From Chlamydiota bacterium (GTDB lineage Bacteria > Auribacterota > JACPWU01): a DNA stretch of 32,000 nucleotides. Shown piece by piece: positions 3,222 to 28,103 of this stretch; positions within the stretch are counted from its first letter, which is position 1, and each line of letters begins with the position of its first letter. The position numbers were made by a program, and so were the translations under genes. The notes under the pieces were generated by a model. That model was given only the letters and a program-made list of their open reading frames with translations. It searched no databases and was not told where the DNA came from. The stretch spans positions 504 through 32,503 of the forward strand of contig JACPWU010000053.1 in the NCBI GenBank assembly GCA_016196885.1, given 5' to 3'.

Positions 3222-3231
3222 GTTTTTCAAG

Positions 3232-3309
3232 ATGTGCGCATGTGCCAATGTGTCAATGTGCCAATGATAAAACACCTTATTTCATTGGCACATAGGCACA
3301 TAGGCACAG
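3232..3309. repeat. Inverted tandem-octamer element (ptsH|ptsI junction)
   Basis: Left arm ATGTGCGC ATGTGCCA ATGTGTCA ATGTGCCA ATG; A/T-rich centre ataaaacaccttattt; right arm CATTGGCA CATAGGCA CATAGGCA CAG. The innermost 8 bp are perfectly complementary. Confidence 0.85.
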
Positions 3310-5139: not shown

Positions 5140-5160
5140 ACTTTTCTCCTTTGTAAAAAA

Positions 5161-5223
5161 AAGTTGTAAGTAAGAAAATAAACTCTTTTAAAACTTAGAA
5201 CTTAAAACTTACAACTTAGAACT
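5161..5223. repeat. Inverted tandem-heptamer element with conserved core (lptB|hpf junction)
   Basis: AAGTTGT AAGTAAG / aaaataaactcttttaaaa / CTTAGAA CTTAAAA CTTACAA CTTAGAA CT. Confidence 0.8.
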
Positions 5224-5283
5224 GCTTTTCTCAGTTGATCCTACTAGAAAAAGAAGCCACGCGTCAACTAGAACAGAACGGCA

Positions 5284-6006
5284 TTACATCGAAAATTTCT
5301 CGCCCAAATAAAGTTGACGCGCTTCAGGGTCATTGGCTAAAAATTCAGAAGTCCCCGATTTCAAAACCTTTCCTTCATAAATTAAATAAGTTCGATCCGT
5401 CACGGAAAGGGTTTCACGAACATTGTGATCCGTCAAAAGAATCCCCATGCCTTTTTTTCTTAACTTCTTCAAAATTTCCTGGACATCCAAAACAGCTATA
5501 GGATCCACTCCTGAGAACGGCTCATCTAACATGAGAAAAGAAGGTTTCGTAACCAAGGCCCGTGTGATTTCAAGCCGGCGCCTTTCACCCCCTGAAAGGG
5601 TATAGGCCTTACGAGTTGCCAGGGACGTCAGTTGAAGTTCATCCATCAATTCTGCCACCCTCTTTTTTCTCTCAGAGCGGGACATGGGCAGCATTTCTAA
5701 AATGGCGAGAATATTTTCCTCGACGGTTAGGTTACGAAAAATCGATGGCTCTTGAGCCAGGTATCCCATCCCCAGCCGCGAGCGCGTAGACACGGGAATT
5801 TTACTGATATCTCTTTGCCTAAAAAAAACCTTGCCAGCACTTGGAGAAATGAGCCCCACAATCATGTAGAAGGACGTGGTCTTCCCTGCCCCATTGGGCC
5901 CTAAAAGCCCCACAATCTCCCCCTCATTCACCGTGAGATTGACCTCATTCACCACTTTTTTACGGTGATAGGCCTTTACTAAATTTTCAGTTTGAAGAAG
6001 TTGCAT
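5284..6006 (-). CDS. lptB: LPS export ABC transporter ATP-binding protein
   Basis: Walker A GPNGAGKTT, signature LSGGERRR, Walker B LMLDEP. Sits directly downstream of lptA. Confidence 0.93.
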   Translation of the reverse strand: MQLLQTENLVKAYHRKKVVNEVNLTVNEGEIVGLLGPNGAGKTTSFYMIVGLISPSAGKVFFRQRDISKIPVSTRSRLGMGYLAQEPSIFRNLTVEENILAILEMLPMSRSERKKRVAELMDELQLTSLATRKAYTLSGGERRRLEITRALVTKPSFLMLDEPFSGVDPIAVLDVQEILKKLRKKGMGILLTDHNVRETLSVTDRTYLIYEGKVLKSGTSEFLANDPEARQLYLGEKFSM

Positions 6007-6030
6007 GCTTGTTTTCCCTCACGTGAAAAC

Positions 6031-6111
6031 GGTCGTGAGTCGTGAGGGATGAGTCGTGAGTAAAAAATAAATACCTTAAAACTCACGACCCACGACCGAC
6101 GACTCACGACT
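6031..6111. repeat. Inverted tandem-heptamer element with conserved core (lptA|lptB junction)
   Basis: G GTCGTGA GTCGTGA GGGATGA GTCGTGA G / taaaaaataaataccttaaaa / CTCACGA CCCACGA CCGACGA CTCACGA CT. Confidence 0.9.
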
Positions 6112-6117
6112 GTTTTC

Positions 6118-6606
6118 CTAAAGCCATCCCTGATCCTGAGCTGACTTCTGATCCGTAGAATATAAAATGAGCTTCGCACTCGGCTCTACCAGCATACGGC
6201 TGTCATCTCGATAAAAAGTGATTTTATCTCCCGTAATGACATCTTCTCCTTTTTTGACCATGGGGTGCCCCGTCAACACCACTTTGCCATCTTTCTCTGT
6301 GTAAATCGCTTCTTCAGATTTAGCGCTTTTCTCTTCTTTGCGAAATCGAACATTCCCCTTTGCCAAGACTTTCTGAATGGTTTTTGTCCCGCTTTCAAAA
6401 TACACCGTCATTTCATTCGCTGTCATTTTCATCCGCGGATCATCTACCACCACATCCTTGTGAAAAATCGCCATGTTCTTTTCATAATCCATGTTCAACT
6501 CACCCTGACAGGTAATGGTGGTCTGAGGTGGGGTCTTCTCAGGAAAAGCCTGAACACAAATGGCCAAGAGAAACATCGCTATGAAAATACTTTTTTTTCT
6601 GTGCAT
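6118..6606 (-). CDS. lptA: LPS transport periplasmic protein LptA (OstA-like)
   Basis: Signal peptide followed by an OstA-like beta-jellyroll pattern (KGNVRF..A..A.Y......VLTGHP....GEDVITGDKITFY). Position between lptC and lptB. Confidence 0.8.
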   Translation of the reverse strand: MHRKKSIFIAMFLLAICVQAFPEKTPPQTTITCQGELNMDYEKNMAIFHKDVVVDDPRMKMTANEMTVYFESGTKTIQKVLAKGNVRFRKEEKSAKSEEAIYTEKDGKVVLTGHPMVKKGEDVITGDKITFYRDDSRMLVEPSAKLILYSTDQKSAQDQGWL

Positions 6607-6617
6607 CTTTTTAATTC

Positions 6618-7118
6618 CTACATTTCCTTAAAAGCCTTCATTTCACTGGAATCCACCACCATCTTCACATTTTTATGAATGACCGCCGTCCTCTTCAGGG
6701 TCTCCCAATACATCCCTACCCCTGTGAGTTTGAAATCGCCTCGAGTAATTTCGACAGGGGCCTCGGTCCAAACATCTCGGGTATTTTTATCCACATACCC
6801 GACAGAAGACTCAATGAAATAATCCGGTTCGTTTCTTCCATAGACAACCGCTCGAACAGGTCTTATCTCAATCTTATCATCGGATAAAAACTGGGCCTCA
6901 TCTCCCTCCACCTTCCAGCGCTTTTCATTTTCAAAACCCGGCGAGACAAACCGAAAGCCCTGTGTGATTTGATCGCCGGTTGAACCTGTTTCGACGCCAT
7001 TCACTAAAATCGGAAGAAAAAAAGAAGCACACAGCATACAGCGTACAGCGTACAAAATTAAAAGGCAAAAAGTTTTTCCGTCCGCTGTGCGCTGTACGCT
7101 GAACGCTCTCTTAAACAT
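6618..7118 (-). CDS. lptC: LptC-like LPS export component with N-terminal membrane anchor
   Basis: Size, position (kdsC-lptC-lptA-lptB) and a single N-terminal TM helix. ATG 7118 has GAGGTG upstream, whereas the track start at 7127 is TTG. Codons ~5-31 coincide with an inverted heptamer element, so the start is uncertain; the alternative is ATG 7037. Confidence 0.6.
   Translation of the reverse strand: MFKRAFSVQRTADGKTFCLLILYAVRCMLCASFFLPILVNGVETGSTGDQITQGFRFVSPGFENEKRWKVEGDEAQFLSDDKIEIRPVRAVVYGRNEPDYFIESSVGYVDKNTRDVWTEAPVEITRGDFKLTGVGMYWETLKRTAVIHKNVKMVVDSSEMKAFKEM
7028..7108. repeat. Inverted tandem-heptamer element lying inside the predicted lptC N-terminus
   Basis: ACAGCAT ACAGCGT ACAGCGT AC / aaaattaaaaggcaaaaagtttttcc / G TC CGCTGTG CGCTGTA CGCTGAA CGCTC. 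Confidence 0.85.
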
Positions 7119-7638
7119 ATTGCGCAATCACCTCTTCCCAAACCCCCTGAGCCTTCAGAATTTTCTCAACCACCTCTCGCACGGCTCCCCGTCCTCCACA
7201 AGACTGGGTCACATAAGAGGCAACCCTTTTCACCTCAGAAACGGCATTCTGGACTGCAACAGAGAAACCAACCCTTTTCAAAATTGAAATGTCAATCAAA
7301 TCATCCCCGACATAACATACTTCCTCAGGTTGAAGCCTAAAATTTCTCAAGAGATCTTCAAACGCCTCACCCTTCTCTAAACGATTTTGATAAAGGGCAT
7401 CCACCCCCAACTCTTTTGCACGTAAGAGAAGCGCCTTGGATTCTCGTGCACTGATAAAGACCGTCTTTAATCCTGCCCTCTTCGCAAGCACAATGCCAAG
7501 CCCGTCCAAGGCGTGAAAAGTCTTAAACTCTTTTCCATCGCCATCCAGGTAAATCACACCATCGGTGAGAACACCATCCACGTCGAGGGCGAGGGCTTTG
7601 ATATTCCGCAAAAGCACTGAAAGAGTTTGTTTTTTCAT
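7111..7638 (-). CDS. kdsC: 3-deoxy-D-manno-octulosonate 8-phosphate phosphatase (HAD-IIIA, YrbI family)
   Basis: LALDVDGVLTDG ... GDDLIDISIL motifs; neighbours kdsD. Confidence 0.9.
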   Translation of the reverse strand: MKKQTLSVLLRNIKALALDVDGVLTDGVIYLDGDGKEFKTFHALDGLGIVLAKRAGLKTVFISARESKALLLRAKELGVDALYQNRLEKGEAFEDLLRNFRLQPEEVCYVGDDLIDISILKRVGFSVAVQNAVSEVKRVASYVTQSCGGRGAVREVVEKILKAQGVWEEVIAQYV

Positions 7639-7641
7639 AGA

Positions 7642-7743
7642 AATTCAGAATTCAGAAGTCAGAATTCAGAAGAAAAGCGAACACGCTAAGTTTTTCGTTT
7701 TTATTCTGAATTCTGTATTCTGTATTCTGACTTCTGTATTCTG
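7642..7743. repeat. Inverted tandem-heptamer element (kdsD|kdsC junction)
   Basis: AATTCAG AATTCAG AAGTCAG AATTCAG AAG / aaaagcgaacacgctaagtttttcgttttt / ATTCTGA ATTCTGT ATTCTGT ATTCTGA CTTCTGT ATTCTG. Confidence 0.9.
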
Positions 7744-7745
7744 TT

Positions 7746-8729
7746 TTAAAAAATCCCATTCCTAATCAAATCCTGCACATCCAACATCCCCACAGGATGA
7801 TCCCTTCCATCCACCACCGGCAATTCATCCACGCGCAAATCCTTCATGACGCGGAGCGCCTCAATCGCCATTTTCCCCACCTCGATGGTCTTCGGATGCC
7901 GGGTCATCAACTCCGAAATCAATTTCTGAAGCACCTGCGGATCTTCTTCTAGATGCCGGCGTAAATCCCCATCCGTAAAAATTCCGACCAAGCGGCCAGA
8001 ATCATCCACCACATTGGCCGCTCCTCCGTGTGCCGTCGTAATACGAATGAGCACATCTCTAACGCATGTTTTCATGTGAACGATGGGGTTCATCTCCCCC
8101 GTTCTCATGATGTCTTCAACCCGCAAGGTCAATTTTTTTCCCAGACTGCCCCCCGGATGATAAAGCGCATAATCCTCTGGTTTAATTCCCTTTCGATCTA
8201 AAAGGGCCATGGCCAAGGCGTCTCCCACCACCAGGCTCACCGTCGTACTGGCCGTAGGAGCAAGACCCAAAGGACAGGCCTCTTTTTGAATCGTGATATC
8301 GAGAACAATGTCCGCATTTTTTGCCAAAGTGGATTGAAGATTTCCTGTCATGCCAATGACCTTGGCCTCCATGTGCTTCAAAAAGGGCAATAAATTTTTA
8401 ATCTCTTCCGTCTCCCCACTGTTAGAAATAATCAGGATGACATCTTTTTCTAAGACTGTTCCCAAATCTCCGTGGCTTGCCTCCGCTGGATGAATGAATT
8501 GAGACGGCGTTCCCGTGCTGTTAAAAGTCGCGGAAATTTTTCTCGCAATAATACCGGGTTTACCCATCCCCGTCACAATCACCTTTCCTTCACAGTGATA
8601 AAGGAGATCCACAGCCCTTTCGAACTCATCTCCCAACCGATCCATCAAAGCTAGAATGGCCTCTGCTTCAGTCTTAATGACCATGCGGGCAATGCGCAAT
8701 GACTCTGATAATTTTTCGGCTGCTCTCAT
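7746..8729 (-). CDS. kdsD: Arabinose-5-phosphate isomerase (SIS + tandem CBS)
   Basis: KpsF/GutQ pattern: GKVIVTGMGKPG, ISNSGETEE, C-terminal CBS pair. Confidence 0.92.
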   Translation of the reverse strand: MRAAEKLSESLRIARMVIKTEAEAILALMDRLGDEFERAVDLLYHCEGKVIVTGMGKPGIIARKISATFNSTGTPSQFIHPAEASHGDLGTVLEKDVILIISNSGETEEIKNLLPFLKHMEAKVIGMTGNLQSTLAKNADIVLDITIQKEACPLGLAPTASTTVSLVVGDALAMALLDRKGIKPEDYALYHPGGSLGKKLTLRVEDIMRTGEMNPIVHMKTCVRDVLIRITTAHGGAANVVDDSGRLVGIFTDGDLRRHLEEDPQVLQKLISELMTRHPKTIEVGKMAIEALRVMKDLRVDELPVVDGRDHPVGMLDVQDLIRNGIF

Positions 8730-8764
8730 GTTTTCTCAATCTATCCTTCTTGGCAACATCTTTT

Positions 8765-8793
8765 AAATCCAAAAATCAAAATGCAAATATCAA
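8765..8793. repeat. Orphan heptamer arm fragment (AAAATCA type)
   Basis: AAATCCA AAAATCA AAATGCA AATATCA. Same unit type as the left arm at 8921-8956, and separated from it by the 100-nt GC-rich element. Confidence 0.7.
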
Positions 8794-8798
8794 TTCCA

Positions 8799-8902
8799 AT
8801 GATCCTTCGAGATCATCATGTGCGATGAAAGTTCTCCCCATCATGCTTTTTTTGTAGTCGCCCGATTCATCGGGCAGCCCCATAAATGGGGCGACTACAA
8901 AA
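8799..8902 (+). repeat. ~100-nt GC-rich structured repeat element, copy A
   Basis: ATGATCCTTCGAGATCAT hairpin, then GATGAAAGTTCTCCCCATCATG, a T-run, GTAGTCGCCCGATTCATCGGGCAGCCCCATAAATGGGGCGACTAC and an A-run. Near-identical to 20302-20404. Confidence 0.9.
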
Positions 8903-8920
8903 TGAGCCTGACTTTCATAG

Positions 8921-9020
8921 CAAATGACAAACCAAAATCCAAAATGATTACCAAAGATAAAGACGTAGATACACTTTGATTTTTAATATGTCATTTTGAT
9001 TTTTGATATTTGATTTTTGA
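8921..9020. repeat. Inverted tandem-heptamer element (kdsA|kdsD junction)
   Basis: Left arm caaatgacaaaccaaaatccaaaatgattaccaaag; centre ataaagacgtagatacac; right arm TTGATTT TTAATAT GTCATTT TGATTTT TGATATT TGATTTT TGA. Confidence 0.75.
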
Positions 9021-9022
9021 AT

Positions 9023-9868
9023 TTATTTAATTCCAAACTTCCCCACCACTCCATCTAATTCCAAGACCTGTTCCAAAAGGTCTGGAAGATCCGCCAAGCG
9101 AACCATATTCGGGCCATCGCTTAAGGCATGATCGGGATCATCATGCACCTCCATGAAAAGACCGTCACATCCCGTGGCCACCGCTGCCCTCGCCAGAGGA
9201 AGAACGAAAGAACGCTCTCCCCCAGAACGATCCCCTTCGCCCCCTGGCAATTGAACACTGTGCGTCGCATCAAAAATCACAGGAAAACCAAAAGAGCGCA
9301 TCACGACCAAACTTCTCATGTCACTCACCAAATTATGATACCCGAAAGAACATCCCCGTTCCGTTAGTAAAATATTCTCTGTACCTACACTTTGAGCTTT
9401 TTCAACCACATTGTACATATCCCACGGGGATAAAAACTGACCCTTTTTGATATTGATGGCCTTTGCCTTTTTGGCCACCTCGACAACCAGATCTGTTTGC
9501 CGGGACAAAAAGGCTGGAATCTGAAGAACATCGGCGACCTCAGCCACAGGAGAAACTTCCTCTATCGAATGGACATCGGTCAAAATGGAGACGCCAAACT
9601 CCTTTTTCACCTTTGTCAAAATCTCCAAACCTTTTTTCAGACCCGGCCCTCGAAAGGAACGAACGGAACTGCGATTGGCCTTATCATAAGAAGATTTAAA
9701 AATCCAAGGTAAAGATTTATTCTTAAAAACACGATGCAAAGCCTCCGCCATTTTCACACAGTGCTCTTCACTCTCAATGACGCAAGGCCCTGCAATAAAA
9801 ACCAAAGGGTGCCCTGAACCGATAGAAATCTTGCCTATTTTTACTTCTTTGACTGTTGGAGAAGTCAT
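9023..9868 (-). CDS. kdsA: 3-deoxy-8-phosphooctulonate synthase
   Basis: FKSSYDKANRSS, IFDATHSVQLPGG, GLFMEVHDDP motifs. Confidence 0.95.
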   Translation of the reverse strand: MTSPTVKEVKIGKISIGSGHPLVFIAGPCVIESEEHCVKMAEALHRVFKNKSLPWIFKSSYDKANRSSVRSFRGPGLKKGLEILTKVKKEFGVSILTDVHSIEEVSPVAEVADVLQIPAFLSRQTDLVVEVAKKAKAINIKKGQFLSPWDMYNVVEKAQSVGTENILLTERGCSFGYHNLVSDMRSLVVMRSFGFPVIFDATHSVQLPGGEGDRSGGERSFVLPLARAAVATGCDGLFMEVHDDPDHALSDGPNMVRLADLPDLLEQVLELDGVVGKFGIK

Positions 9869-9896
9869 GAGATACCCCTATCCTACGATCAAAAAC

Positions 9897-10013
9897 CAAT
9901 CATCACTAATGACAAATTCCCAATTTCAAATGACAAATAAATGTTCAATGACTCAATCTTCAATTGGACATTGGATCATTGGAAATTAATTTGTTATTTG
10001 TCATTGGTCATTA
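9897..10013. repeat. Inverted tandem-heptamer element (pyrG|kdsA junction)
   Basis: The left arm has AATGACA-type units; caaatgacaaataa at 9927-9940 pairs with ttatttgtcattg at 9994-10006. Right arm CATTGGA CATTGGA TCATTGG ... TTTGTCA TTGGTCA TTAC. The right arm overlaps the pyrG stop region. Confidence 0.75.
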
Positions 10014-11634
10014 CTTTCGACCCCTTCTCTCTACCCTGATGTTCCACCACTGCCTGAATAAAACTCGCAAAGAGAGGATGTGCTCGGTCGGGCTTTGATT
10101 GAAACTCGGGATGATATTGACAGGCCACAAACCAGGGATGACCTTCTAATTCTATCAACTCGGCCAAAACCCCGTCGGGAGAAAGCCCCGTCACCTTTAA
10201 TCCATTTTTCTCAAAAATTTCCCGAAATCCGTTATTGAGTTCATAGCGATGACGATGACGTTCCATCACCCGATGGCGGCCATAAATCTCGTAAACTTTA
10301 GAACCCGGCTTCAATTCGCAAGGGGAAGCCCCCAGGCGCATGGTCCCTCCCAAATTTTTCACATTCTGCTGCTCGGAAAGCAGACAAATCACGGGATGCG
10401 GTGTTTCAGGTTCGAACTCGGTGCTGTTGGCCTTATCAAAACCGCACACATGACGCGCAAATTCAATGACAGAGCATTGCATCCCCAAGCAAATCCCAAA
10501 AAAGGGAATGCGATGTTCCCGCGCGTATTGAATCGCAGAAATTTTTCCTTCAATCCCGCGTGTCCCAAATCCCCCTGGGACTAAAATTCCGGACACGTCT
10601 TTTAAGTAAAGACCCGGGCCATCTTTCTCAATTTTTTCAGCATCCACTTTTGTTACTTCGACCCGGACGCTGTTGTGAAAACCCGCATGGATAATCGCCT
10701 CATAAATACTTTTATATGCATCTTGATGCTCAATGTACTTTCCCACCACAGCCATTTTAACGGTCCCCTTGGGATGCTCCATTCTCTCGATCACCTCTCC
10801 CAAAGGGGTCCCCTGATGTTTTCTGGCTGTCAAGGCGAGCTTTTGAATAATCAAATCCCCCAAGCCTTCTTGGGCCAAGAGAAGAGGTACCTTATAAACA
10901 GAATCCACATCTTTGGCTTGAATCACAGCCTTCGGATCCACATTGCAAAAAAGGGCGATTTTGCGCTTCACGTCATCCGAAAGATCCCGCTCTGTACGGC
11001 ACAAGAGAATATCTGGCTGAATACCGATTTGGCGAAGGGTCCCCACACTGTGCTGCGTAGGTTTGGTTTTAATTTCCTCTGCCGCGCGAATATAAGGAAC
11101 ATAGGTCAAATGAATGTAAAGCACATCTTGCCACCCCAAGTCTAAACGAAATTGACGAATGGCCTCTAAAAAAGGAAGACCCTCAATATCCCCGACCGTC
11201 CCGCCCACCTCCCCAATCACAACATCCAAATTTGGATCCAACTCGACCAATTTGCGGATGCGGCCTTTAATTTCATCAATGATGTGGGGTACCACTTGAA
11301 CGGTACGACCCAGATAATCCCCTTTTCTTTCTTTTTTTATCACAGCATCATAAACCTGACCCGTGGTAAAATTATTCGCCCTCGTCATCCGTGCCGAGGT
11401 AAAACGTTCATAATGCCCCAAATCCAAATCTGTCTCGGCCCCATCGTCTGTGACATAAACCTCCCCATGCTGATAGGGGCTCATGGTGCCTGGATCTACA
11501 TTAATATAGGGATCCAATTTTTGAAGCGTTACCTTAAGCCCCGCTTCTTCCAGCAACCGCCCGATCGAGGCTGAGGCAATCCCCTTCCCCAAAGAAGAAA
11601 TGACACCCCCCGTTATAAAGATGTACTTGGCCAT
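9994..11634 (-). CDS. pyrG: CTP synthase
   Basis: [20 protein letters not shown]-terminus and the glutaminase GICLGMQ Cys motif; full length. The last few codons (..VMTNDK) lie in a repeat arm. Confidence 0.97.
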
Positions 11635-12353
11635 AATATTTTCTTCACCTCCTCTAAATCTTCAGGGGTATCCACCCCGATGGAATCTTCTTGCGTTACC
11701 ATTACTTTAATTCGCCCACCTCTTTCCAAAACCCTCAACTGTTCAAGACCTTCAGCACGTTCCAGAGACGAAGGCTCACTGGAAGCCAAATCCAGCAAAA
11801 AATCCCGCCGATAGGCATAAATCCCCATGTGCTTTAACCAAGAGGGCGTTGGCCCATTTCTAAAAAAAGGAATGGGCGATCTTGAAAAATAAAGCGCAAA
11901 ACCGGACTCATCACAAACCACTTTGACCACCCGTGACTCTTGAAAACCATCGGGCCCCGTCATGGCTCTGGCCAAGGTACTCATCTGGGCATCTCCCTCT
12001 AAAAGACCTTGAACCACTTTATCCACCATGGTTCCTGACATCAAAGGTTCATCCCCCTGAATATTCACAAAAATATCTCCATCCATTTTTCTCGCAATTT
12101 CAGCCACACGATCCGTGCCACTGACATGATCCTTCGATGTCAATAGGGCCCTTCCCCCAAAAGCCTCCACCGCCTTCACAATACTCTGATGGTCACAAGC
12201 AACAATGAGATCCGTCAAAAGCCGAGCACTCTTGGCCCCTTCATAGACGTGCTGAATCATAGGCTTGCCGCAAAGATCGGCCAACACCTTTTGCGGAAAC
12301 CGGGTGGAGCCAAGCCTTGCGGGAATGACTCCAATGATTTTATGAGTAGACAT
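11613..12353 (-). CDS. kdsB: 3-deoxy-manno-octulosonate cytidylyltransferase (CMP-KDO synthetase)
   Basis: [17 protein letters not shown] and IQGDEP motifs. 22-nt overlap with the pyrG start. Confidence 0.93.
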
Positions 12354-12366
12354 AATATTTACCTCA

Positions 12367-12449
12367 GTGAAGAATGAAAAATGAAAAGTGAAAAGTGAGA
12401 AAACTTGTGTTGGTTTTTAATTTTTCACTTTTCATTTTACATTCTCAAC
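12367..12449. repeat. Inverted tandem-heptamer element (gmhB|kdsB junction)
   Basis: GTGAAGA ATGAAAA ATGAAAA GTGAAAA GTGAG / aaaacttgtgttggtttttaa / T TTTTCAC TTTTCAT TTTACAT TCTCAAC. Confidence 0.88.
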
Positions 12450-13047
12450 TTTTTCGCTTTATCCCCATCTCCGCCTTCATGCTCTCCAAAACGCCACTGT
12501 CTTTTAAAATCCACTCCGCCGCGCTTCCCAAATTGTCCGCAACATAATCTGGAAAAGGCCACTCATCATCATCCTCATCTAAATTCACACCTTCATTTTC
12601 AGAAAGAAGAAGAATGGTTTTACAACTTGCATTTTTTCCGGTCAGAACATCTGAAATTTTATCGCCAATTAAATACGATTTTTTCAAATCTATCCCGTAC
12701 CTCTTTGCCAAATCCTTCAACATCTTGGGCTGGGGCTTGCGGCAAAGACACTTTTCCTCGGGGCGGTGGGGACAATAACTGATGGCATCCAATTCGATTC
12801 CATCTTTTTGGAACTCTTCCACCATCCGATGATGAATGGATTTGAGCATTTCTTCCGCAATAATGCCACGCCCCACCCCTGACTGATTGGTTACCACAAA
12901 AAGTTTAAACCCCATTTCTTTTAACAAAAGAAGGGCCGGCTTTACGCCAGCAATCAAATGGAAATTTTCGATCTTGCTGATATAACCAATATCCTCGTTC
13001 AGGGTTCCATCTCGATCCAAGAAAATTCCACGATTCTTAACTGACAT
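12445..13047 (-). CDS. gmhB: D-glycero-beta-D-manno-heptose-1,7-bisphosphate 7-phosphatase
   Basis: HAD-IIIA motifs FLDRDGTLN, VTNQSG and the Zn site CPHRPEEKCLCRKP. Start set at ATG 13047 (MSVKNRGIF), overlapping the upstream stop by 11 nt. Confidence 0.88.
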   Translation of the reverse strand: MSVKNRGIFLDRDGTLNEDIGYISKIENFHLIAGVKPALLLLKEMGFKLFVVTNQSGVGRGIIAEEMLKSIHHRMVEEFQKDGIELDAISYCPHRPEEKCLCRKPQPKMLKDLAKRYGIDLKKSYLIGDKISDVLTGKNASCKTILLLSENEGVNLDEDDDEWPFPDYVADNLGSAAEWILKDSGVLESMKAEMGIKRKS

Positions 13048-14020
13048 TTTCAAGCTCCTTCTCAATTTCACTTTTGTAAACAACCGCCGTCCCTAATTTA
13101 CCCACCACCACACCCGCACAGACATTGGCCAATTGAGCCGCATCCTTCAAACCCGCTCCACAGGCCATCGAAACCGCAAAGCTCGCAATCACCGTATCTC
13201 CGGCTCCGGACACATCATAAACTTCCCTGGCTCGGGTTGGAATCAGATAAGGTTCCTCATTCTTTTCAAAAAGGCACATCCCTTTGGCACCCAACGTCAC
13301 TAAAATCGCTTGGGCCTCCCACCTATCTAGCAAAATTCTCCCAGCCTCGTCCAGCCTAGAATCATCATCCCCTTCAATTCCAGCAAAATAGGAGGCCTCC
13401 TCGAAGTTGGGCGTTGCAAAGGCAATTCCCCGATAATCTAGAAAATGGCCTTTTTTCGGATCTACCCCTATGGGTATTTCTTCCCGCTTTGCAAAATGAA
13501 TGAGGCGATTCACAAAATCCTGATTCACCACGCCCTTTCCATAATCTTCAATCAAAATGACATCCGCTCTATTTTTGATCTTGGAAAGATGAGATAAAAA
13601 TTTCTGAGTTTGCTTTCCATCCAGAGGAGAAAGCGTCTCTCGATCAATGCGAACCACCTGTTGTTGATGAGCCACCACACGTGTCTTTAATGAAGTGGGC
13701 CTTTCTTTATCCTGCAATACAGGTGAGGTATCTATTTTTCTCCGCCTCATGAGAGAAATAAGCTCGCGAGCCTCATCATCTTTCCCCACCACGCCTGAAA
13801 TCCAAACCTTCGCGCCCAAGGCCGCAATGTTACTGGCTACATTCGCTGCCCCCCCTGGTACATAAGAATCCTTTTCCACTTCGACGACGGGAACAGGAGC
13901 CTCCGGAGAAATCCGACGGACCTTCCCCCACACAAAACAATCCAAAATCAAATCACCCACGACGTAAATCTTGGCAGAGTGAAAACGGGATAGTATCTTT
14001 TTATACTTAGAATGCATCAT
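13037..14020 (-). CDS. rfaE1: D-glycero-beta-D-manno-heptose-7-phosphate kinase (RfaE domain I only, PfkB family)
   Basis: VVGDLILDCFVWGKV, PGGAANVA and DVSGAGDT motifs, ~327 aa with no adenylyltransferase domain. Start at ATG 14020. The track's N-terminal extension (..THHSPLTTHHSP..) translates a heptamer arm. Confidence 0.88.
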   Translation of the reverse strand: MMHSKYKKILSRFHSAKIYVVGDLILDCFVWGKVRRISPEAPVPVVEVEKDSYVPGGAANVASNIAALGAKVWISGVVGKDDEARELISLMRRRKIDTSPVLQDKERPTSLKTRVVAHQQQVVRIDRETLSPLDGKQTQKFLSHLSKIKNRADVILIEDYGKGVVNQDFVNRLIHFAKREEIPIGVDPKKGHFLDYRGIAFATPNFEEASYFAGIEGDDDSRLDEAGRILLDRWEAQAILVTLGAKGMCLFEKNEEPYLIPTRAREVYDVSGAGDTVIASFAVSMACGAGLKDAAQLANVCAGVVVGKLGTAVVYKSEIEKELENVS

Positions 14021-14032
14021 AAAATACCCAAT

Positions 14033-14121
14033 GAATGGTGAGTGGTGAGTAGTGAGTGGTGAGTGGTGAGTAAAAACAAAACACATTTTAAAACTCACCC
14101 CTCACCCATCACTCCTCACCC
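14033..14121. repeat. Inverted tandem-heptamer element with conserved core (DUF3108|rfaE1 junction)
   Basis: GAATGGT GAGTGGT GAGTAGT GAGTGGT GAGTGGT GAG / taaaaacaaaacacattttaaaa / CTCACCC CTCACCC ATCACTC CTCACCC. The right arm covers the last codons and the stop of the DUF3108 gene. Confidence 0.9.
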
Positions 14122-14891: not shown

Positions 14892-14955
14892 AGATTTTTT
14901 AATGTATAACAACGTTCATGAAATTATGAAAGAAAAAAAATAGCATGCAATTTTT

Positions 14956-14980
14956 CTTTGAACCCTTAAACCTTTGAACC
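14956..14980 (+). repeat. Tandem octamer tract CTTTGAAC CCTTAAAC CTTTGAAC at the cyclase 3' end
   Basis: Direct reading. It encodes the cyclase C-terminal ..KGSKV and its stop. Confidence 0.8.
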
Positions 14981-16882: not shown

Positions 16883-16947
16883 TGCCAAAGTGATCTCCAA
16901 ATGGTTACAATAGGCGTGTTCGTAAAGTCTGCAATACCCCAAGAAAT

Positions 16948-17002
16948 AAGCACGAAATTCGAAGCACGAAGGTTGTACTCATAAGCAACCATACGAAGCA
17001 TG
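16948..17002 (+). repeat. Seven-nt periodic tract (AAGCACG AAATTCG AAGCACG AAGGTTG ...) in the divergent cyclase/FecR intergenic region
   Basis: Direct reading; AAGCACG/ACGAAGCA recurs three times with 7-nt phasing. Confidence 0.7.
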
Positions 17003-17024
17003 TCTTTTTAGAAAGAGTTTTGCA

Positions 17025-18347
17025 ATGAAAAAAATAATCCTCGCTTCTCTCTTTTTACTCATGGTTCTTTCACTTCTTCAAGCTTCTCCCATCCCCCAAC
17101 CCTTGATCCAATCCTTACAAGGAGAAGTCCAAATTCTTAAAACCCAGGGGAGCGAACCGGCCAAAACAGGAATGGCCCTTTCAACATCGGATATTCTTTC
17201 CACGGGACCTCATTCCTTTTGCGTGATCAAAATGGACGAAGAGAATTCCCTTCGTGTGAAGCAAAACTCCAAAATTAAAATCAAAAAAATATGGGAAGAG
17301 GTTCAAAAATCAGACGGCCGTGTGGTTCAGGAATACCGAGTGAATGTGACCCAGGGCGAGCTCACTGCCCAATTAGGAAAACTCCCCAAAGACAGCGAAT
17401 TCAAAGTCTCAAGCCCTGTCGCCGTCGCAGGAGCAAAAGGAACGGTTTACACAACAAGAGTAGAAGGAGAAAGCGGGAAGACACGGGTAAGCGTTCTAGA
17501 CCATGAAGTCTTAGTCGAAAGTTTGGACAGTCCTAACAAAACAGTCACTGTGCAAAAATTTAGATGGGTGGACACGGCCCCCTGGGACGAAACAACACTC
17601 AACGCAACAGGACGCGCTCTCCTCTCCGAGGCCATTTTAGGAAAAAATTTTGCGAAACAGGCGGAACAAAATGCACAAATTCAAGCTATCGGAACAGGCC
17701 CTTCCCCAGAGGAAGCCAAATTTAAGGCTACCTACAACCTATCCAGAATCGCCCTTCAACTCCATGTAGAACCAGAAAAAACCGTCGGCGCCTATATTTC
17801 TCAAAGCACGGAACAAACTCAAAAATTTTATCAGGCGATTGCAAAAGCACAAGTCACCGAGCCCACTCAAAAAGAAGACGGGTCCTTAGAGGCCAAGGCC
17901 CAAATCAATGTTAAAGATTTGGCAGAAGCTTTGAAACATCCCCTTTCAGGGATCACACAAAGCATCATTCCCGTCACCCTTTCCGAATACTCATCAAAAT
18001 TTGGAGCGCTGGCCCGCGTGACCACACAGCGAGCGGCCCAAGTAGAAGGATATCGAAACCTCGCCGAAATCATTTATGGCGTTGTGATCGACTCAAACAC
18101 CACCGTGCAAGACTTGGCCGTAAAAAATGACACGGTTCGCACAGTTGTTCAAGGCGTGGTCAAGGGAGCCAAGGTCGTGAACACTCAATACTTCTCTGAC
18201 GGCTCCGTCATTGTCTCTCTGGAAATTCAGGGAGGACTCATTCCTCAACAGTTAGGGACAACCACAGGCAATGTATTTGGACAAAATTATCTCTCGAGTC
18301 CCAGAATCGTCCAATACGATGAAATCGTAGATTATTTGAACCTTTGA
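17025..18347 (+). CDS. Secreted FecR-domain protein fused to two FlgP/LPP20-like domains
   Basis: Signal peptide, then a FecR-like N-terminus (GEVQILKTQGSEPAKTGMALSTSDILSTGPHSFCVIKMDEENSLRVKQNSKI). The C-terminus carries RAAQVEGYRNLAEIIYGVVIDSNTTVQDL..GAKVVNTQYFSDGSVIVSLEI, the same domain as the proteins at 21893-23786. A weaker copy lies at IQAIGTGPSPEEAKFKATYNL. Confidence 0.7.
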   Translation: MKKIILASLFLLMVLSLLQASPIPQPLIQSLQGEVQILKTQGSEPAKTGMALSTSDILSTGPHSFCVIKMDEENSLRVKQNSKIKIKKIWEEVQKSDGRVVQEYRVNVTQGELTAQLGKLPKDSEFKVSSPVAVAGAKGTVYTTRVEGESGKTRVSVLDHEVLVESLDSPNKTVTVQKFRWVDTAPWDETTLNATGRALLSEAILGKNFAKQAEQNAQIQAIGTGPSPEEAKFKATYNLSRIALQLHVEPEKTVGAYISQSTEQTQKFYQAIAKAQVTEPTQKEDGSLEAKAQINVKDLAEALKHPLSGITQSIIPVTLSEYSSKFGALARVTTQRAAQVEGYRNLAEIIYGVVIDSNTTVQDLAVKNDTVRTVVQGVVKGAKVVNTQYFSDGSVIVSLEIQGGLIPQQLGTTTGNVFGQNYLSSPRIVQYDEIVDYLNL

Positions 18348-18360
18348 ACTTTAGTGAACC
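18335..18360 (+). repeat. TTTGAACC TTTGAACT TTAGTGAACC tract at the FecR-fusion 3' end
   Basis: Direct reading. Same TTGAAC(C/T) unit as at 14956-14980 and 23237-23286. Confidence 0.75.
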
Positions 18361-19098
18361 ATGTTCCTTTTTCTTAGACTGCTTCTGGCTCATTTCATTG
18401 GAGATTTTCCCTTACAAATCGGCGTGGTTTATTCAGCCAAAGTAAAAAGTGTTCAAGGGAAAATACTTCACGCAGGCCTCGTCACCCTTTCCATGATTGT
18501 CTTTACCTGGCCTTACTGGAAAAATTGGATTTACTGGGGTCTAATCCTTTTCTTAGGAACGCTTCATTTCTTTCAAGACTGGGGGAAACTCGCCATTGCT
18601 CAGAGGATCAAAAATTCTAATAACTTTTTTCTCTACATGGCCGATCAAGTTCTTCATGTGGCCAGTTTCTTCATGATCTGGCTAACGCCCTTACCTCAAA
18701 TCCCGATGAGGGCGAGTCATTCTTTTTTCATCTCTGGACTCTACTTCAACGATAAAGTAACGATCTTTCTGATTGCTGTTTTGGCCGTGAGTTTTGCAGG
18801 GACTTTTACCCTGGCCACCTTCAAGGCCACTTTCCTGTCAGAACGGTTCTACACCCCCTATCTCGACCCCCTGGAGAAAAACTATGGAATTTTAGAAAGA
18901 GGCGTCATGCTCGAATTTTTGATTTTATCCCCGAAGCTCATCTGGCTTTTTCCCCTCTTCCTCCTCTCAAAATTCTTCTATGCCAACCACCAGATCAAAA
19001 AAATCGAAGGAAACCCCTTCACACCTTTTCTCTTGGACACCGTTCTGGGAATGATTTTAACGACCCTCATTTACAAAATATACACCCTCTTCTCCTGA
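18361..19098 (+). CDS. DUF3307 family membrane protein
   Basis: LLLAHFIGDFPLQ hallmark at the N-terminus and multiple TM helices. Starts 13 nt after the preceding gene. Confidence 0.7.
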   Translation: MFLFLRLLLAHFIGDFPLQIGVVYSAKVKSVQGKILHAGLVTLSMIVFTWPYWKNWIYWGLILFLGTLHFFQDWGKLAIAQRIKNSNNFFLYMADQVLHVASFFMIWLTPLPQIPMRASHSFFISGLYFNDKVTIFLIAVLAVSFAGTFTLATFKATFLSERFYTPYLDPLEKNYGILERGVMLEFLILSPKLIWLFPLFLLSKFFYANHQIKKIEGNPFTPFLLDTVLGMILTTLIYKIYTLFS

Positions 19099-19109
19099 TC
19101 AGGAGGCTT

Positions 19110-19171
19110 GACCAAAATGCACCCAATTGCATTTTGGTCTTGACTAAAATGCAATGGGGTGCATTTTGGTC
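19110..19171. repeat. Two adjacent 30-nt hairpins built from four copies of the 12-mer GACCAAAATGCA
   Basis: GACCAAAATGCA cccaat TGCATTTTGGTC tt GACTAAAATGCA atgggg TGCATTTTGGTC. The two loops are nearly complementary to each other. Confidence 0.9.
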
Positions 19172-19253
19172 ACTATGGATAGAATCCAAAAAAAGCTTAA
19201 AACACTACATCACTTCGGCTCTGAGTGATCCTCAAAAAGAAAGATCTTTCGTC

Positions 19254-19281
19254 CCCAGCCCTTTGTTAACAAAGGGCTGGG
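19254..19281. repeat. Perfect 28-nt palindrome CCCAGCCCTTTGTTAACAAAGGGCTGGG
   Basis: Self-complementary over all 28 nt. Lies 35 nt downstream of the CsgG-like stop. No flanking T-tract on either strand. Confidence 0.9.
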
Positions 19282-19315
19282 TCCTCGAGATGACACACAA
19301 ACTAGTGCGTTTGTA

Positions 19316-20266
19316 TCAACCCTCAAACTTCAAAACATCGCCGCGTTGAAAACCACCCCCCCCTACTGTGGTTGCAATTGAAAATTTATCCTGAACTTGA
19401 GAAACTTGAATCAGGCCAATTTTGGTGAGTTCAGAACCCAAATCCATTCCGGTGTCAGGATCCACCAAGGTTTCACCTGGACGATAGACTGTAAGCGTAT
19501 CCCCCATCTGAATACCCGCCGAAGCTCCGGCATTGACAAACACTTTACCCTCCGGCTTCACATCCACAATGCGACCCAACCAAGGAACACTTTGCATACG
19601 ACCCACAATAAAAAAAACAGACTTATCAATCGCCTGCTGACAAGCCTGGCCCAAAGGCGTCTTATCAAAACCCGCTCCACCAAAGGCAAAGTCGCTGTCC
19701 GTGTACGAAAAGGAAAGACCTCCCGCTTCAGCAATTCCTTCACAATGTTGAGAGTCCAAAACCTGACCGGTGGTTGTATCATAGATACGAATATTGACAC
19801 CCACCTTGGCCCGCGATTGATTGGCCCCAATGCGAAAACCATGAACAGCAAATCCACCGCCCTCGCCCCCGCCAGAGGCTTCAAATTCAGTCACAGCGCC
19901 ACTGATCATGATTTGACTCTTAAGAATTTTTCCAATCTTGGCCGCCTCTCCACCCGCCGTGCGACCACTGACTCCAAAATCTTGTTCAGCAATCACCTTT
20001 TCAATTTCGGGACGCTCCACCACAATAAAACGCCCGCTTCGAATGAGTGCAGTGGTCAACATCTCGGCCATGCCATTGCCCAAATCCCATTTGGCCCACT
20101 GACCTGCCTTATTTTCAAAAGTCCCGACCGCAATGGTTTTCTTAGGGCCACTGGGAGCCGGCAAGGCCGCCACAGGAGCCGCCTTCACGGGATACGCAAA
20201 GGCCCCGCCCACTGAACACAAAAGTGAAGCAATCGCTAAAACACTCAAAACCTTCATCTTTTTCAT
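19316..20266 (-). CDS. CsgG/HfaB-family outer-membrane protein with a ~90-aa C-terminal extension
   Basis: Signal peptide MKKMKVLSVLAIASLLCSVGGAFA. CsgG pattern TIAVGTFENKAG..WDLGNGMAEMLTTALIRSGRFIVVERPEIEKVIAEQDF...ISGAVTEFE. Start at ATG 20266 with AGGAG upstream. The track's 35-codon N-terminal extension translates the 100-nt repeat element. Confidence 0.85.
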   Translation of the reverse strand: MKKMKVLSVLAIASLLCSVGGAFAYPVKAAPVAALPAPSGPKKTIAVGTFENKAGQWAKWDLGNGMAEMLTTALIRSGRFIVVERPEIEKVIAEQDFGVSGRTAGGEAAKIGKILKSQIMISGAVTEFEASGGGEGGGFAVHGFRIGANQSRAKVGVNIRIYDTTTGQVLDSQHCEGIAEAGGLSFSYTDSDFAFGGAGFDKTPLGQACQQAIDKSVFFIVGRMQSVPWLGRIVDVKPEGKVFVNAGASAGIQMGDTLTVYRPGETLVDPDTGMDLGSELTKIGLIQVSQVQDKFSIATTVGGGGFQRGDVLKFEG

Positions 20267-20301
20267 GACCTTTAGATTTCTCCTTTCACAAATTAATTTC
20301 G

Positions 20302-20404
20302 ATGATCTTTCGAGATCATCGTATGCAATGAAAGTTCTCCCCATCATGTTTTTTGTAGTCGCCCGATTCATCGGGCAGCCCCATAAATGGGGCGACTACA
20401 AAAA
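20302..20404 (+). repeat. ~100-nt GC-rich structured repeat element, copy B
   Basis: Same orientation as copy A. Over the ~100-nt core I count 4 substitutions plus a 2-nt length difference in the T-run. Lies 36 nt upstream of the CsgG-like start codon. Confidence 0.9.
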
Positions 20405-20417
20405 GAACCTATTCTGG

Positions 20418-21560
20418 CTAAAGAGGTGCTTGTCTTTCCCCAACCCACTTCACATCAATACGGTTTTGAGATTTTGCCGTGACCGCCAAGGCAATGCCGG
20501 GAAGATTCTCTAAGTGAACATCAAAATCTTTCCAGATCGCCCCATCCACAGTCAAATCTAAAATCAAAATATTATTCACAAAACTTCTTTCATTCACACT
20601 CTGAATTCCTCGAATTTCTTCCAAGGTCTTGACAAGCATTTGCTTCGCAGTCGCATTCACACCACTGGCTACCACTTGAATGTTCACCACGTTATAGGCC
20701 TCGCTACGCATTTTCTCAACCATTTCACTCATCAATTTATCTGCCAATTGCCCAGCCCCGAACCGAAGGGCATCCTTAGCAGTTGGAATGCGACCGCCGC
20801 CCCTGGCTTCTCCTTCAACATCATCAGACACCATCACTTCAGCTGTATCTGTTTTAATCACCCGAGCTGAAATCTGGGAGCGGTAAGCAAAAACAGAAAC
20901 GCCGTAGGGTCTAGAATGATCAATCAAATCTGCCGTGGCCTGCCCCACCACCACCATCTCTGCTCCAGATTGACGTCCCAGGGCAGCTGCTTTTTGAGGG
21001 TCGGCATAACTCAAGGCCGCATCTCTTTCCTTAATCATCTGTATCTGATTTTTGTCCACCAGAGGAAAATCCTTGGCAAGAAAAGCCCTCTCCATTTCAG
21101 TTTGAGTCACGGCACCTGCCTGCTCCAATCCATCAATCAATTCAGCAAAAATGAACATCACCCTTGGATTTTCCCGACGCTTCATCGTAATCTTAAGCGC
21201 CTTCAAATTCTTTTCCAAAAGGCCCAAGGCAACCACCGCCCGAACACGAATCACATAAAGCCCATCTTGACCTTGATTATCATTAATCACTTCATAGCTT
21301 GTGACATAACCCTTCACCTGAGAATAGACTTGATCGTCCAAAAGCTGAAAATTGCTGACCATGGTTTCAGAATCAATAATCGAACCCACGCCCTGCTCAA
21401 TGGCATTCCTGAGCGCCCGATTCAAAGCCTCATCATGGGCCTGCAAACTATTTCCTACAGATTTCCCCTCAGCTTCAATCGCTGTCTCAGCAACTTGAGC
21501 AGAAAGTTGAAAACCTGAAAGCATCCCTAATAATGTAAAAAACATGATCCATCTTTTCAT
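20418..21560 (-). CDS. FlgT-like periplasmic protein (LPP20/FlgT_N-like N-domain plus an alpha/beta middle domain and a C-domain)
   Basis: Signal peptide, then AEGKSVGNSLQAHDEALNRALRNAIEQGVGSIIDSETMVSNFQLLDDQVYSQVKGYV..LYVIRVRAVV, which resembles FlgT N-terminal/LPP20-type domains. ~380 aa, similar in size to Vibrio FlgT. Assignment by eye. Confidence 0.5.
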   Translation of the reverse strand: MKRWIMFFTLLGMLSGFQLSAQVAETAIEAEGKSVGNSLQAHDEALNRALRNAIEQGVGSIIDSETMVSNFQLLDDQVYSQVKGYVTSYEVINDNQGQDGLYVIRVRAVVALGLLEKNLKALKITMKRRENPRVMFIFAELIDGLEQAGAVTQTEMERAFLAKDFPLVDKNQIQMIKERDAALSYADPQKAAALGRQSGAEMVVVGQATADLIDHSRPYGVSVFAYRSQISARVIKTDTAEVMVSDDVEGEARGGGRIPTAKDALRFGAGQLADKLMSEMVEKMRSEAYNVVNIQVVASGVNATAKQMLVKTLEEIRGIQSVNERSFVNNILILDLTVDGAIWKDFDVHLENLPGIALAVTAKSQNRIDVKWVGERQAPL

Positions 21561-21583
21561 CTAAGTTTTTCCTTTCTTAACCT

Positions 21584-21665
21584 GTCGTGAGTCGTCGGTC
21601 GTGAGTCGTGAGTAAAAACAAATACTTTTTAAACTCACGACTCACCCCTCACGACTCAAGACTAC
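21584..21665. repeat. Inverted tandem-heptamer element with conserved core (mini-lipoprotein|FlgT-like junction)
   Basis: GTCGTGA GTCGTCG GTCGTGA GTCGTGA G / taaaaacaaatactttttaaa / CTCACGA CTCACCC CTCACGA CTCAAGA CTAC. Confidence 0.9.
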
Positions 21666-21799
21666 TCGACCACTTCCGTCTGTTCTACCACCGTTTCATT
21701 CATAACATCTGTATGATGCTCATGAGGTGCTTCACAACCCCAAAGATTCGTAAGAATGACAGCCACATAAGCAACACCCATCCATTTGAAAAGCTTCAT
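21662..21799 (-). CDS. 45-aa putative lipoprotein
   Basis: Below the track cutoff: MKLFKWMGVAYVAVILTNLWGCEAPHEHHTDVMNETVVEQTEVVE. Has a lipobox-like LWGC and GGAG ~9 nt upstream. Bracketed by two repeat elements. Confidence 0.45.
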   Translation of the reverse strand: MKLFKWMGVAYVAVILTNLWGCEAPHEHHTDVMNETVVEQTEVVE

Positions 21800-21820
21800 G
21801 GTCTCTTCTCCTTGTTTTAA

Positions 21821-21884
21821 CAGTCGTCAGTCGTGAATGTTAAAGGTATTGTTTATTTTTTTACTCATCCTCACCCCTCACCAC
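21821..21884. repeat. Heptamer element with the conserved core in inverted orientation and non-matching arms
   Basis: CA GTCGTCA GTCGTGA / atgttaaaggtattgtttattttttta / CTCATCC TCACCCC TCACCAC. The core is the reverse complement of the taaaaa..ttaaaa core seen elsewhere. Confidence 0.8.
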
Positions 21885-21892
21885 AGCTTTTA

Positions 21893-25994: not shown

Positions 25995-26002
25995 TTTGCA
26001 TC

Positions 26003-27160: not shown

Positions 27161-27208
27161 AAGATAGAACCAGCGAATCAACGAATTTATATAAAAATTT
27201 ATTTGCTG

Positions 27209-27237
27209 TTGAAATCTTTTTTTAAACATATTAATAT
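27209..27237 (+). promoter_or_regulatory. Sigma-70-type promoter for the RelE/RHH pair
   Basis: TTGAAA, 17 nt, TAATAT. The -10 ends 9 nt before ATG 27247 and no Shine-Dalgarno is present. Confidence 0.45.
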
Positions 27238-27246
27238 CTATATAGA

Positions 27247-28078: not shown

Positions 28079-28103
28079 TTTAATTGACTCCCTTTCCTAG
28101 GGT

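Follow-up and report, generated by a model that had tools for sequence, protein, structure and literature searches.

The stretch of DNA analysed here (the window, 32 kb of contig JACPWU010000053.1) is nearly the entire 32.5-kb contig of a metagenome-assembled genome (MAG; locus tags HYS08_) that was deposited as 'Chlamydiae bacterium'. The minus strand carries most of its genes, which form a long co-directional string that includes ptsI, HPr, hprK, a hibernation-factor gene, lptB, lptA, lptC, kdsC, kdsD, kdsA, pyrG and kdsB as well as the genes for a HAD phosphatase, a PfkB kinase, a DUF3108 protein and a CHASE2 cyclase. As the window proteins are nearest to those of MAGs labelled Chlamydiota, Candidatus Theseobacter/Auribacterota and Omnitrophota, we take the host to be an uncultured bacterium of the Planctomycetes-Verrucomicrobia-Chlamydiae (PVC) group. 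Dispersed over the window are five intergenic copies (E1 to E5, Table 1) of one short repeat of 60-95 nt, in which an A/T-rich centre of 19-27 nt (the core) is conserved while the flanking arms vary. All five sit in gaps between a stop codon and the following ribosome-binding site: the first base of E2 directly follows the lptA stop and its last lies 19 nt short of the lptB start, and E4 begins at the stop of a conserved open reading frame (ORF) of 45 aa and ends 24 nt ahead of the next start.

Table 1. Positions of the five elements, their cores and the other palindromes (window positions unless L094 is named).
Feature	Positions	Strand	Description
E1	5161-5223	.	Between lptB and hibernation-factor gene; 5' arm ~2 units AAGTTGT AAGTAAG (read from the sequence); 3' arm 4 units CTTAGAA CTTAAAA CTTACAA CTTAGAA
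E1 core	5175-5193	+	AAAATAAACTCTTTTAAAA; + strand A-rich, coding strand T-rich
E2	6025-6117	.	Fills gap from lptA stop to lptB ribosome-binding site; arms (GTCGTGA)n and (CTCACGA)n; outer GAAAAC/GTTTTC clamp
E2 core	6061-6081	+	TAAAAAATAAATACCTTAAAA
E3	14032-14121	.	Between DUF3108 gene and PfkB-family kinase gene; arms (GTGAGTG)n and (CTCACCC)n; one T·C mismatch per unit
E3 core	14071-14093	+	TAAAAACAAAACACATTTTAAAA
E4	21584-21663	.	From stop codon of 45-aa ORF to ribosome-binding site of 380-aa gene; arms (GTCGTGA)n and (CTCACGA or CTCACCC)n
E4 core	21613-21633	+	TAAAAACAAATACTTTTTAAA
E5	21825-21885	.	Between LPP20-like gene and 45-aa ORF; not a hairpin; arrays CAGTCGT CAGTCGTG and, across the core, CTCATCC TCACCCC TCACCAC, mutually non-complementary
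E5 core	21837-21863	-	Inverted relative to E1-E4; reverse complement TAAAAAAATAAACAATACCTTTAACAT
Context palindrome	3232-3308	.	8-nt unit (ATGTGCCA / CATAGGCA), centre ATAAAACACCTTATT
Context palindrome	7026-7107	.	(AGCGTAC)n heptamer arms, different centre
Context palindrome	7642-7744	.	(AATTCAG)n and (TATTCTG)n, different centre
Context palindrome	9900-10015	.	(AATGACA)n and (TGTCATT)n
Context palindrome	12364-12448	.	(GTGAAAA)n, different centre
Second-family member	8921-9028	.	(AAATCAA)n and (TTTGATT)n arms; five copies in L094
Second-family copy in window	8765-8793 plus 8921-9028		One copy
Second-family copies in L094	5414-5525, 6384-6531, 7522-7664, 8735-8926, 13742-13907		Five within 14 kb

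A first-pass annotation of this DNA had proposed that the five elements carry recognisably the same centre and had named a composition-matched background as the comparison by which that proposal should be judged. We found the five strings where it had placed them, and conducted this comparison with three different nulls. Aligned globally in pairs, the five cores have a mean score of 9.7, a value above the maximum of every null: 5000 mononucleotide shuffles gave 4.39 ± 0.77 (maximum 7.5), 5000 samples of real window segments with at least 78% A+T gave -0.21 ± 1.24 (maximum 5.7), and 200 sets of a selection-corrected null, in which five of 11 hairpin centres are picked in either orientation, gave 4.39 ± 0.72 (maximum 6.4). 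Conversely, the best-scoring five among the 11 hairpin centres of the window are exactly E1 to E5. The centre of the palindrome at 3232, though faintly like the core, does not reach significance (p = 0.11). When a core is compared with the other four, its score is 21-24 in the same orientation and falls to 11-13.5 for the reverse complement, an asymmetry indicating that the core (consensus about (T)AAAAAA-Y-AAA-W-ACC-TTT-AAAA) is polar and not a mere A-run followed by a T-run. That the resemblance is a coincidence, or a compositional convergence of A/T-rich hairpin loops, might be argued on the grounds that most centres of heptamer-armed palindromes in this DNA are A/T-rich with A-runs and then T-runs, and that a core-only hidden Markov model (HMM) does not separate its own training copies from decoys in 340 kb. 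We nonetheless judge this explanation to be very improbable, because the observed score was reached by 0/5000 shuffles, 0/5000 A/T-rich samples and 0/200 selection-corrected sets, because the two orientations score so differently and because copies in other genomes match at 18/20 and 18/21 positions (see below). For practical purposes, a chance origin of the core similarity is excluded.

Copies with the same core are present in other genomes, at positions that are not orthologous to those in the window. We inspected syntenic loci of relatives, which had been found through two proteins with 59-79% amino-acid identity; the genomes that carry the core share ~74-79% amino-acid identity in the one flanking protein compared. 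First, a locus of the sister MAG HYS07 (L089) carries at 3030-3062 a core, AAAATAAATAATTCCTTTAA, that agrees with that of E5, AAAATAAACAATACCTTTAA, at 18/20 positions without gaps (shuffle p = 0.001-0.002). It is flanked by (AGTCSAC)n arrays, and its mean score against the five window cores is 24.6, above the 21-24 observed among these cores themselves. Second, a Logan assembly (L087) contains at 13139-13172, between (GTAGGTT)n arms, a core that is identical to that of E2 at 18/21 positions (p = 0.001-0.012). Third, a metagenome contig (L083) harbours the core TAAAAAACAAAATTTCAGATATTAAAA between (GGTGAAT)n arms and receives 38.9 bits (E about 1e-5) from a covariance model whose training set consisted of window copies only, with the caveat that this contig was first found with a pattern derived from E2 to E4. 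The similarity of cores between genomes (86-90%) is no lower than that within the window, which points to constraint and not to recent drift. As the arms in the window are largely of one type, the earlier proposal of a conserved loop with variable stems draws its support from these copies in other genomes and not from the five in the window. An assembly artefact was considered and rejected, as the same architecture recurs in independent assemblies from several projects. Two further loci showed no differences from those already described, L090 matching L089 over the aligned stretch with the same gene spacing and L001 being identical to the window, and these pairs therefore carry no information on polymorphism in unit number. 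L001, a Logan contig (SRR12113416) identical to window positions 4982-6061, terminates precisely on the final base of the E2 5' arm. This shows that such palindromes break short-read assemblies, and their number in MAGs is therefore probably underestimated.

The arms are built from tandem arrays with a period of 7 nt, a property absent from the first-pass annotation. Most rows returned by Tandem Repeats Finder for the window have a period of 7 or a multiple thereof, and there are 25 period-7 tracts versus 5-14 for periods 6, 8 and 9. For E2, E3 and E4 the program reported period-7 arrays in both arms, and for E1 in the 3' arm, while the short 5' arm of E1 and the arrays of E5 were identified by reading the sequence. 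Altogether, ~11 intergenic gaps of the window, those of E1 to E5 included, carry heptamer-armed palindromes, each with its own unit. The arm diversity ascribed earlier to the five elements was overstated, because four of the five use GTGAG-based units: E2 to E5 all consist of GTGAG-containing heptamers (GTGAGTC, GTGAGTG or GTGAGGG) and the NTAAGTT unit of E1 differs by transitions. Similarly, the GAG...CTC flanks attributed to all five copies are present in E2 to E4, while E1 is flanked by AAG...CTT and E5 by GAG and, at its opposite side, TCAC.

Three features of the arms bear on how they arose. First, mismatches recur once per unit, as with the T·C in every heptamer of E3, and single unpaired positions at unit spacing are seen when the palindromes at 3241 and 7645 are folded, and in L039; amplification of an imperfect founder stem would leave such a pattern. 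Second, the two arms of an element can have unequal unit numbers (2 versus 4 in E1, 6 versus ~1.5 in the L089 element). Third, among 90 arm mismatches G·T and A·C are equally frequent (13 each), which gives no hint that one strand is selected to pair as RNA, and the better fold does not belong consistently to one strand. These features fit a separate tandem amplification of a founding 7-nt unit on each side, and they do not fit strong selection for pairing or the copying of one arm from the other. With arms made of tandem heptamers, replication slippage would be a simpler reason for their fast change.

The folding of the elements is heterogeneous. E2 to E4 have arms that are 80-86% complementary over 23-37 nt, and thus possess terminal inverted repeats of the kind required of MITEs (miniature inverted-repeat transposable elements); their RNA folds are very stable (-40 to -54 kcal/mol) and the DNA fold of E2 has an energy of -28 kcal/mol (z -7.5 versus shuffles). 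The hairpin of E1 is weak (as RNA, about -14 kcal/mol). E5 is not a hairpin, because its arrays are non-complementary and its fold is no better than that of shuffled sequences (z = 0.01), and the label of hairpin element applied to it earlier has to be withdrawn. The stable folds, together with the location in stop-to-ribosome-binding-site gaps of co-directional gene strings, raise the possibility that the elements act in the intercistronic transcript as a terminator or attenuator, a stabiliser of 3' ends or a site for RNase III or RNase E, the U-rich loop serving as an RNA motif. In relatives, a hairpin of some kind often occupies the corresponding gap, even one of unrelated sequence, as this explanation would have it, and the coding strand reads T-rich in 6/8 oriented cores (E1 to E4, L083 and L089, versus A-rich in E5 and L087 13139). 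However, the 6:2 ratio is not significant, nor was the 4:1 ratio within the window, which the first-pass annotation had counted correctly, significant with five copies, and orientation relative to the genes is not fixed. Moreover, no T-runs follow the stems, except for TTTT after E2, and a terminator consensus scan of the window showed no excess (30 candidates versus 22.4 ± 4.8 expected) and did not pick the elements. The symmetry of wobble-compatible mismatches (13 to 13), the absence of a consistently better-folding strand, the weak fold of E1, the lack of one in E5 and the lack of an Rfam match at gathering score in the window all speak against a function at the RNA level, which we regard as improbable. 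A promoter consensus scan likewise gave numbers near shuffle expectation, with nothing coinciding with the elements.

At orthologous positions, the core is not retained. The HYS07 orthologue of E5 has kept both flanking arrays (CTGTGGTGAG[T/G]GGTGAG ... CGACTGTTAAAA) and has no core, the core is also absent from the HYS07 orthologue of E4, and the L094 orthologues of E2 and E3 have other centres. In the remaining relatives the orthologous gaps are either empty or contain other hairpins, often of unrelated sequence, and we therefore conclude that turnover is fast. One orthologous spacer, that between the 380-aa gene and a CsgG-like gene, was compared in six genomes and was not alignable. This turnover counts against the idea that a host factor binds the core, for instance a nucleoid or RNA-binding protein, displayed at the tip of a hairpin or cruciform whose arms need only pair and are otherwise free to drift. 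Such a site would account for a core that is conserved and polar across genomes while the arms differ, and for elements placed precisely between cistrons; in addition, an A/T-rich centre flanked by G+C-containing arms is a layout that favours cruciform extrusion. Nevertheless, we doubt this explanation, since beyond the loss of the core at orthologous positions E5 shows a core without a hairpin, both orientations occur, the equal numbers of G·T and A·C mismatches give no sign that pairing of a transcript is selected, and reading the cores revealed no good match to the E. coli consensus of integration host factor (IHF; WATCAANNNNTTR). Readings of the core as a site for IHF, dif/Xer or CsrA (GGA), or as a Shine-Dalgarno or anti-Shine-Dalgarno sequence, had been tried and were dropped as inconsistent across copies when judged by eye.

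A related possibility is that the 19-27 nt core alone is mobile, a very small unit whose insertion targets, pre-existing tandem heptamer arrays or hairpin tips, would be the arms. The model for this would be the small dispersed repeats (SDR1-8) that Elhai et al. are said to have described in 2008 in Nostoc punctiforme and its relatives: these reportedly are conserved units of 21-27 nt, often located within tandem heptameric repeats, that are present or absent between related heterocyst-forming cyanobacteria, and they reportedly were proposed to be very small mobile elements. E1 to E5 resemble SDRs in having a 19-27 nt core within tandem heptamer repeats. The one candidate filled/empty case, E5 versus L089, may be a gain or a loss. 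They differ in phylum, in flanking arrays that are usually inverted copies of each other (palindromes) and in a closing stem that usually travels with the core. With a host in the PVC group and SDRs in heterocystous cyanobacteria, the two are at most analogues. In support of a mobile core, the same core lies between unrelated arrays and in both orientations, its size range agrees with that reported for SDRs, and in E5 it lies between non-complementary arrays whose HYS07 orthologues are without it. Arrays and palindromes without the centre do exist: apart from the L089 orthologue of E5, small palindromes with GGGCTAAG-type arms are found at different loci in L095 (6648-6707) and L096 (8943-8993). 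On the other hand, most copies share the closing stem GTGAG/CTCAC along with the core, as would fit a joint movement of the two, and the comparison of the filled E5 site with the empty L089 site revealed no clean insertion boundaries. Moreover, no solitary cores outside heptamer contexts were found in the ~170 kb searched, and no mechanism or enzyme is known for such a unit. We consider it unlikely that the core moves alone.

On the basis of these results, we favour the hypothesis, in which our confidence is about even, that E1 to E5 belong to a non-coding dispersed repeat family of a narrow uncultured PVC-group clade, akin to repetitive extragenic palindromic (REP) sequences, bacterial interspersed mosaic elements (BIMEs) and MITEs, in which stem and core are inherited and the arms are added later by slippage. 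The inherited unit would be a closing stem of 4-8 bp (usually ..GTGAG / CTCAC..) around the polar 19-27 nt centre. The long arms would be secondary, the founding 7-nt stem unit having been amplified in tandem by replication slippage on each side independently; the arrays would be complementary in register because they descend from complementary founders, and they would be homogenised within each arm while changing fast between copies. The centre cannot slip and so would stay recognisable. Copies would reach new intergenic gaps in either orientation, and a family older than the split of the carrier genomes implies that the centre is kept by constraint, most likely because it would be a cis site for a trans-acting function that propagates or tolerates the element. 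The comparisons establish that the copies form one family, with a polar core, arms that vary and repeat with a 7-nt period, both orientations, non-orthologous positions and a single presence/absence case; it is the slippage origin of the arms, the mobility and the recognition of the centre by a protein that are inferred. The polarity of the core, its recurrence with unrelated arms and in both orientations, and its presence/absence at E5 thus fit the common mobile origin and/or recognition site suggested by the first-pass annotation. No recombinase, nuclease or TnpA-REP-like gene, the kind of partner that this suggestion also envisaged, was seen in the window or among the genes listed for the flanks of close relatives.

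Several observations weigh against the favoured hypothesis. The copy number of five is that of the 32-kb window and not of the whole genome. The metagenome scan with the pattern GTGAGTAAAAAN{7,18}TTWAAACTCAC returned four matches, and L083 alone proved to be a real relative. The covariance models (R1 and R2) assign 37-50 bits to the training copies and L083 (36.9 bits to E1 with R2), versus 12-19 bits to distant candidates; the background reaches 15.5 bits in member-free loci, where the matches fall inside coding regions, and 14-19 bits on the wrong strand of true copies. A core-only nhmmer profile is without power, as the training copies score ~4.5 bits and decoys score equally. The covariance and HMM search that the annotation had recommended hence did not separate distant members from background; the covariance models were therefore not used to call them, and it is the comparison of array centres, not a search of whole genomes, that supports the cross-genome claim. 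There is a single presence/absence case (E5 versus L089), which is unpolarised and equally well explained by a central deletion in HYS07. Reading the flanks of E2 to E4 revealed no direct target-site duplications, those of E2 (GAAAAC...GTTTTC) being inverted. Finally, neither the window nor the genes listed for the flanks of the close relatives (~140 kb) include a transposase, a REP-associated tyrosine transposase (RAYT) or another partner gene.

We compared the elements with known repeat systems. Heptamer repeats are over-represented in bacteria and a slippage origin has been proposed for them in the passages covered of Rehm et al. 2015 (PMC4692102). These passages describe for Xanthomonas 70-75 convergent inverted pairs of heptamer repeats (GGGAATC) per genome, which differ in length and sequence from one close species to the next but often occupy the same position. 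Like these pairs, as the same passages present them (PMC4692102), E1 to E4 and the heptamer-armed context palindromes are intergenic and consist of two close arrays of a 7-nt unit on opposite strands, capable of forming a stem-loop or cruciform. According to these passages, however, Xanthomonas uses one G-rich, quadruplex-forming unit genome-wide, whereas here one genome has many unrelated units, none of them quadruplex-type (GTCGTGA, GTGAGTG, CTTAGAA and similar units have no G-tract), and the passages covered mention no conserved central module, whereas here the core is present. REP and BIME sequences of enterobacteria and pseudomonads are short, high-copy intergenic palindromes, often located between the cistrons of operons, and are thought to be mobilised in trans, REPs and REPINs by RAYT transposases; in E. 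coli BIME-1 (RIP/RIB), an IHF site lies in a conserved A/T-rich linker between two inverted REPs (PMC3116915, PMC3333891, PMC3733652). E1 to E4 resemble REPs as short intergenic palindromes and BIME-1 in having two inverted arms around a conserved A/T-rich centre. By contrast, REP arms are not tandem repeats, are conserved across copies and carry a GTAG or CGTC tag (PMC3733652), a tag that was not seen on reading the ends of E1 to E5, and unlike the REP/REPIN system no RAYT gene accompanies the elements in the window or the relatives' flank gene lists. Bacterial MITEs such as Correia, RUP and Nezha share with the elements a non-coding nature, terminal inverted repeats, intergenic location and the presence of several copies, and have stable folds, many copies and filled/empty sites between relatives (PMC3184786). 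The E elements differ from MITEs in being shorter (60-95 nt), in having neither target-site duplications nor a known matching insertion sequence, and in inverted repeats that are variable tandem arrays instead of a fixed transposase-binding end. E1 to E5 thus lack the marks that define a REP (GTAG/CGTC tag), a MITE (target-site duplication) and an intrinsic terminator. From this comparison, they appear to combine features of the Xanthomonas pairs, SDRs and BIME-1 in a new phylum, one centre being combined with many arm types. A literature search on heptamer-armed hairpins in Omnitrophota or the PVC group returned nothing relevant.

The heptamer-palindrome architecture is widespread and much denser in the clade of the window. 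Heptamer-armed palindromes are found sporadically, at 1-4 per ~20-kb locus, in Omnitrophota MAGs (L022, L024, L008 and L007), in a Verrucomicrobia MAG (L039), in a Nitrospirae MAG (L057) and in L056, with units that include CTAAGAG, GTAAGCT, GAAACTG and GCTGAAG. In a second family, of ~130 nt, the arms are (AAATCAA)n / (TTTGATT)n and the inner segments (..AAAATGACA.. / ..ATGTCATTTT..) are conserved; its five copies within 14 kb of L094 indicate that elements of this architecture do multiply. A compound palindrome, unrelated to E1 to E5 and present in two copies (window 8841-8911 and 20350-20404), reads TTTTTGTAGTCGCCCGATTCATCGGGC A GCCCCATAAATGGGGCGACTACAAAAA, with two small inner hairpins and GTAG...CTAC ends, the tag typical of REP elements; judged by this likeness, a RAYT-type system may also exist in this genome. 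AAATCAA-type repeats flank a GTAG palindrome of the window on both sides, as if it were nested in a copy of the second family. Finally, a palindrome with 31-nt arms of 94% complementarity (TGACCAAAATGCACCCAATTGCATTTTGGTC tt GACTAAAATGCAATGGGGTGCATTTTGGTCA) adjoins a DUF3307 gene (window 19109-19172; L089 5319-5383) and, unlike the heptamer elements, is recognisably conserved in the sister MAG, for which reason it may be an operator or other functional site.

Other features of the window concern its genes. The 45-aa ORF next to E4 and E5 (21662-21799, minus strand; MKLFKWMGVAYVAVILTNLWGCEAPHEHHTDVMNETVVEQTEVVE) falls below the 80-aa limit of the ORF list, has a lipoprotein-like signal (LWGC) and has a 43-45 aa gene called at the matching position in most relatives. 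Three listed ORFs (13037-14098, 1413-3275 and 19316-20371) run into E3, the octamer hairpin and the GTAG palindrome, respectively, and domain positions and orthologue lengths suggest that their true starts probably lie further downstream. The stretch at ~26000-28440, with a DUF4143/AAA ATPase gene, a ParE-like toxin gene and a HigB-like toxin with a helix-turn-helix partner, has a lower G+C content (0.38-0.40) and looks like an inserted island, because other genes follow the sigma-54 activator gene in the relatives L086 and L087. A tRNA scan of the window found none.

Palindromic repeats such as REP, BIME, MITE and SDR are common, and the origin and spread of most of them are unknown. One ~20-nt centre with at least five unrelated arm types, alongside palindromes with and without a centre and at least one other family whose arms are conserved across copies, amounts to a natural experiment, as this modularity separates two processes that are usually confounded: the growth of arms by 7-nt slippage and the conservation or spread of a central module. 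On the practical side, such palindromes break short-read assemblies, and mechanically listed ORFs run into them at three genes. If the centre is a recognition site, an oligonucleotide that contains it could serve as bait for the responsible protein in an uncultured phylum. Should the core instead prove to be an SDR-like mobile unit so far from cyanobacteria, heptamer arrays with tiny mobile centres would be recurrent across phyla and would point to an undiscovered enzymology.

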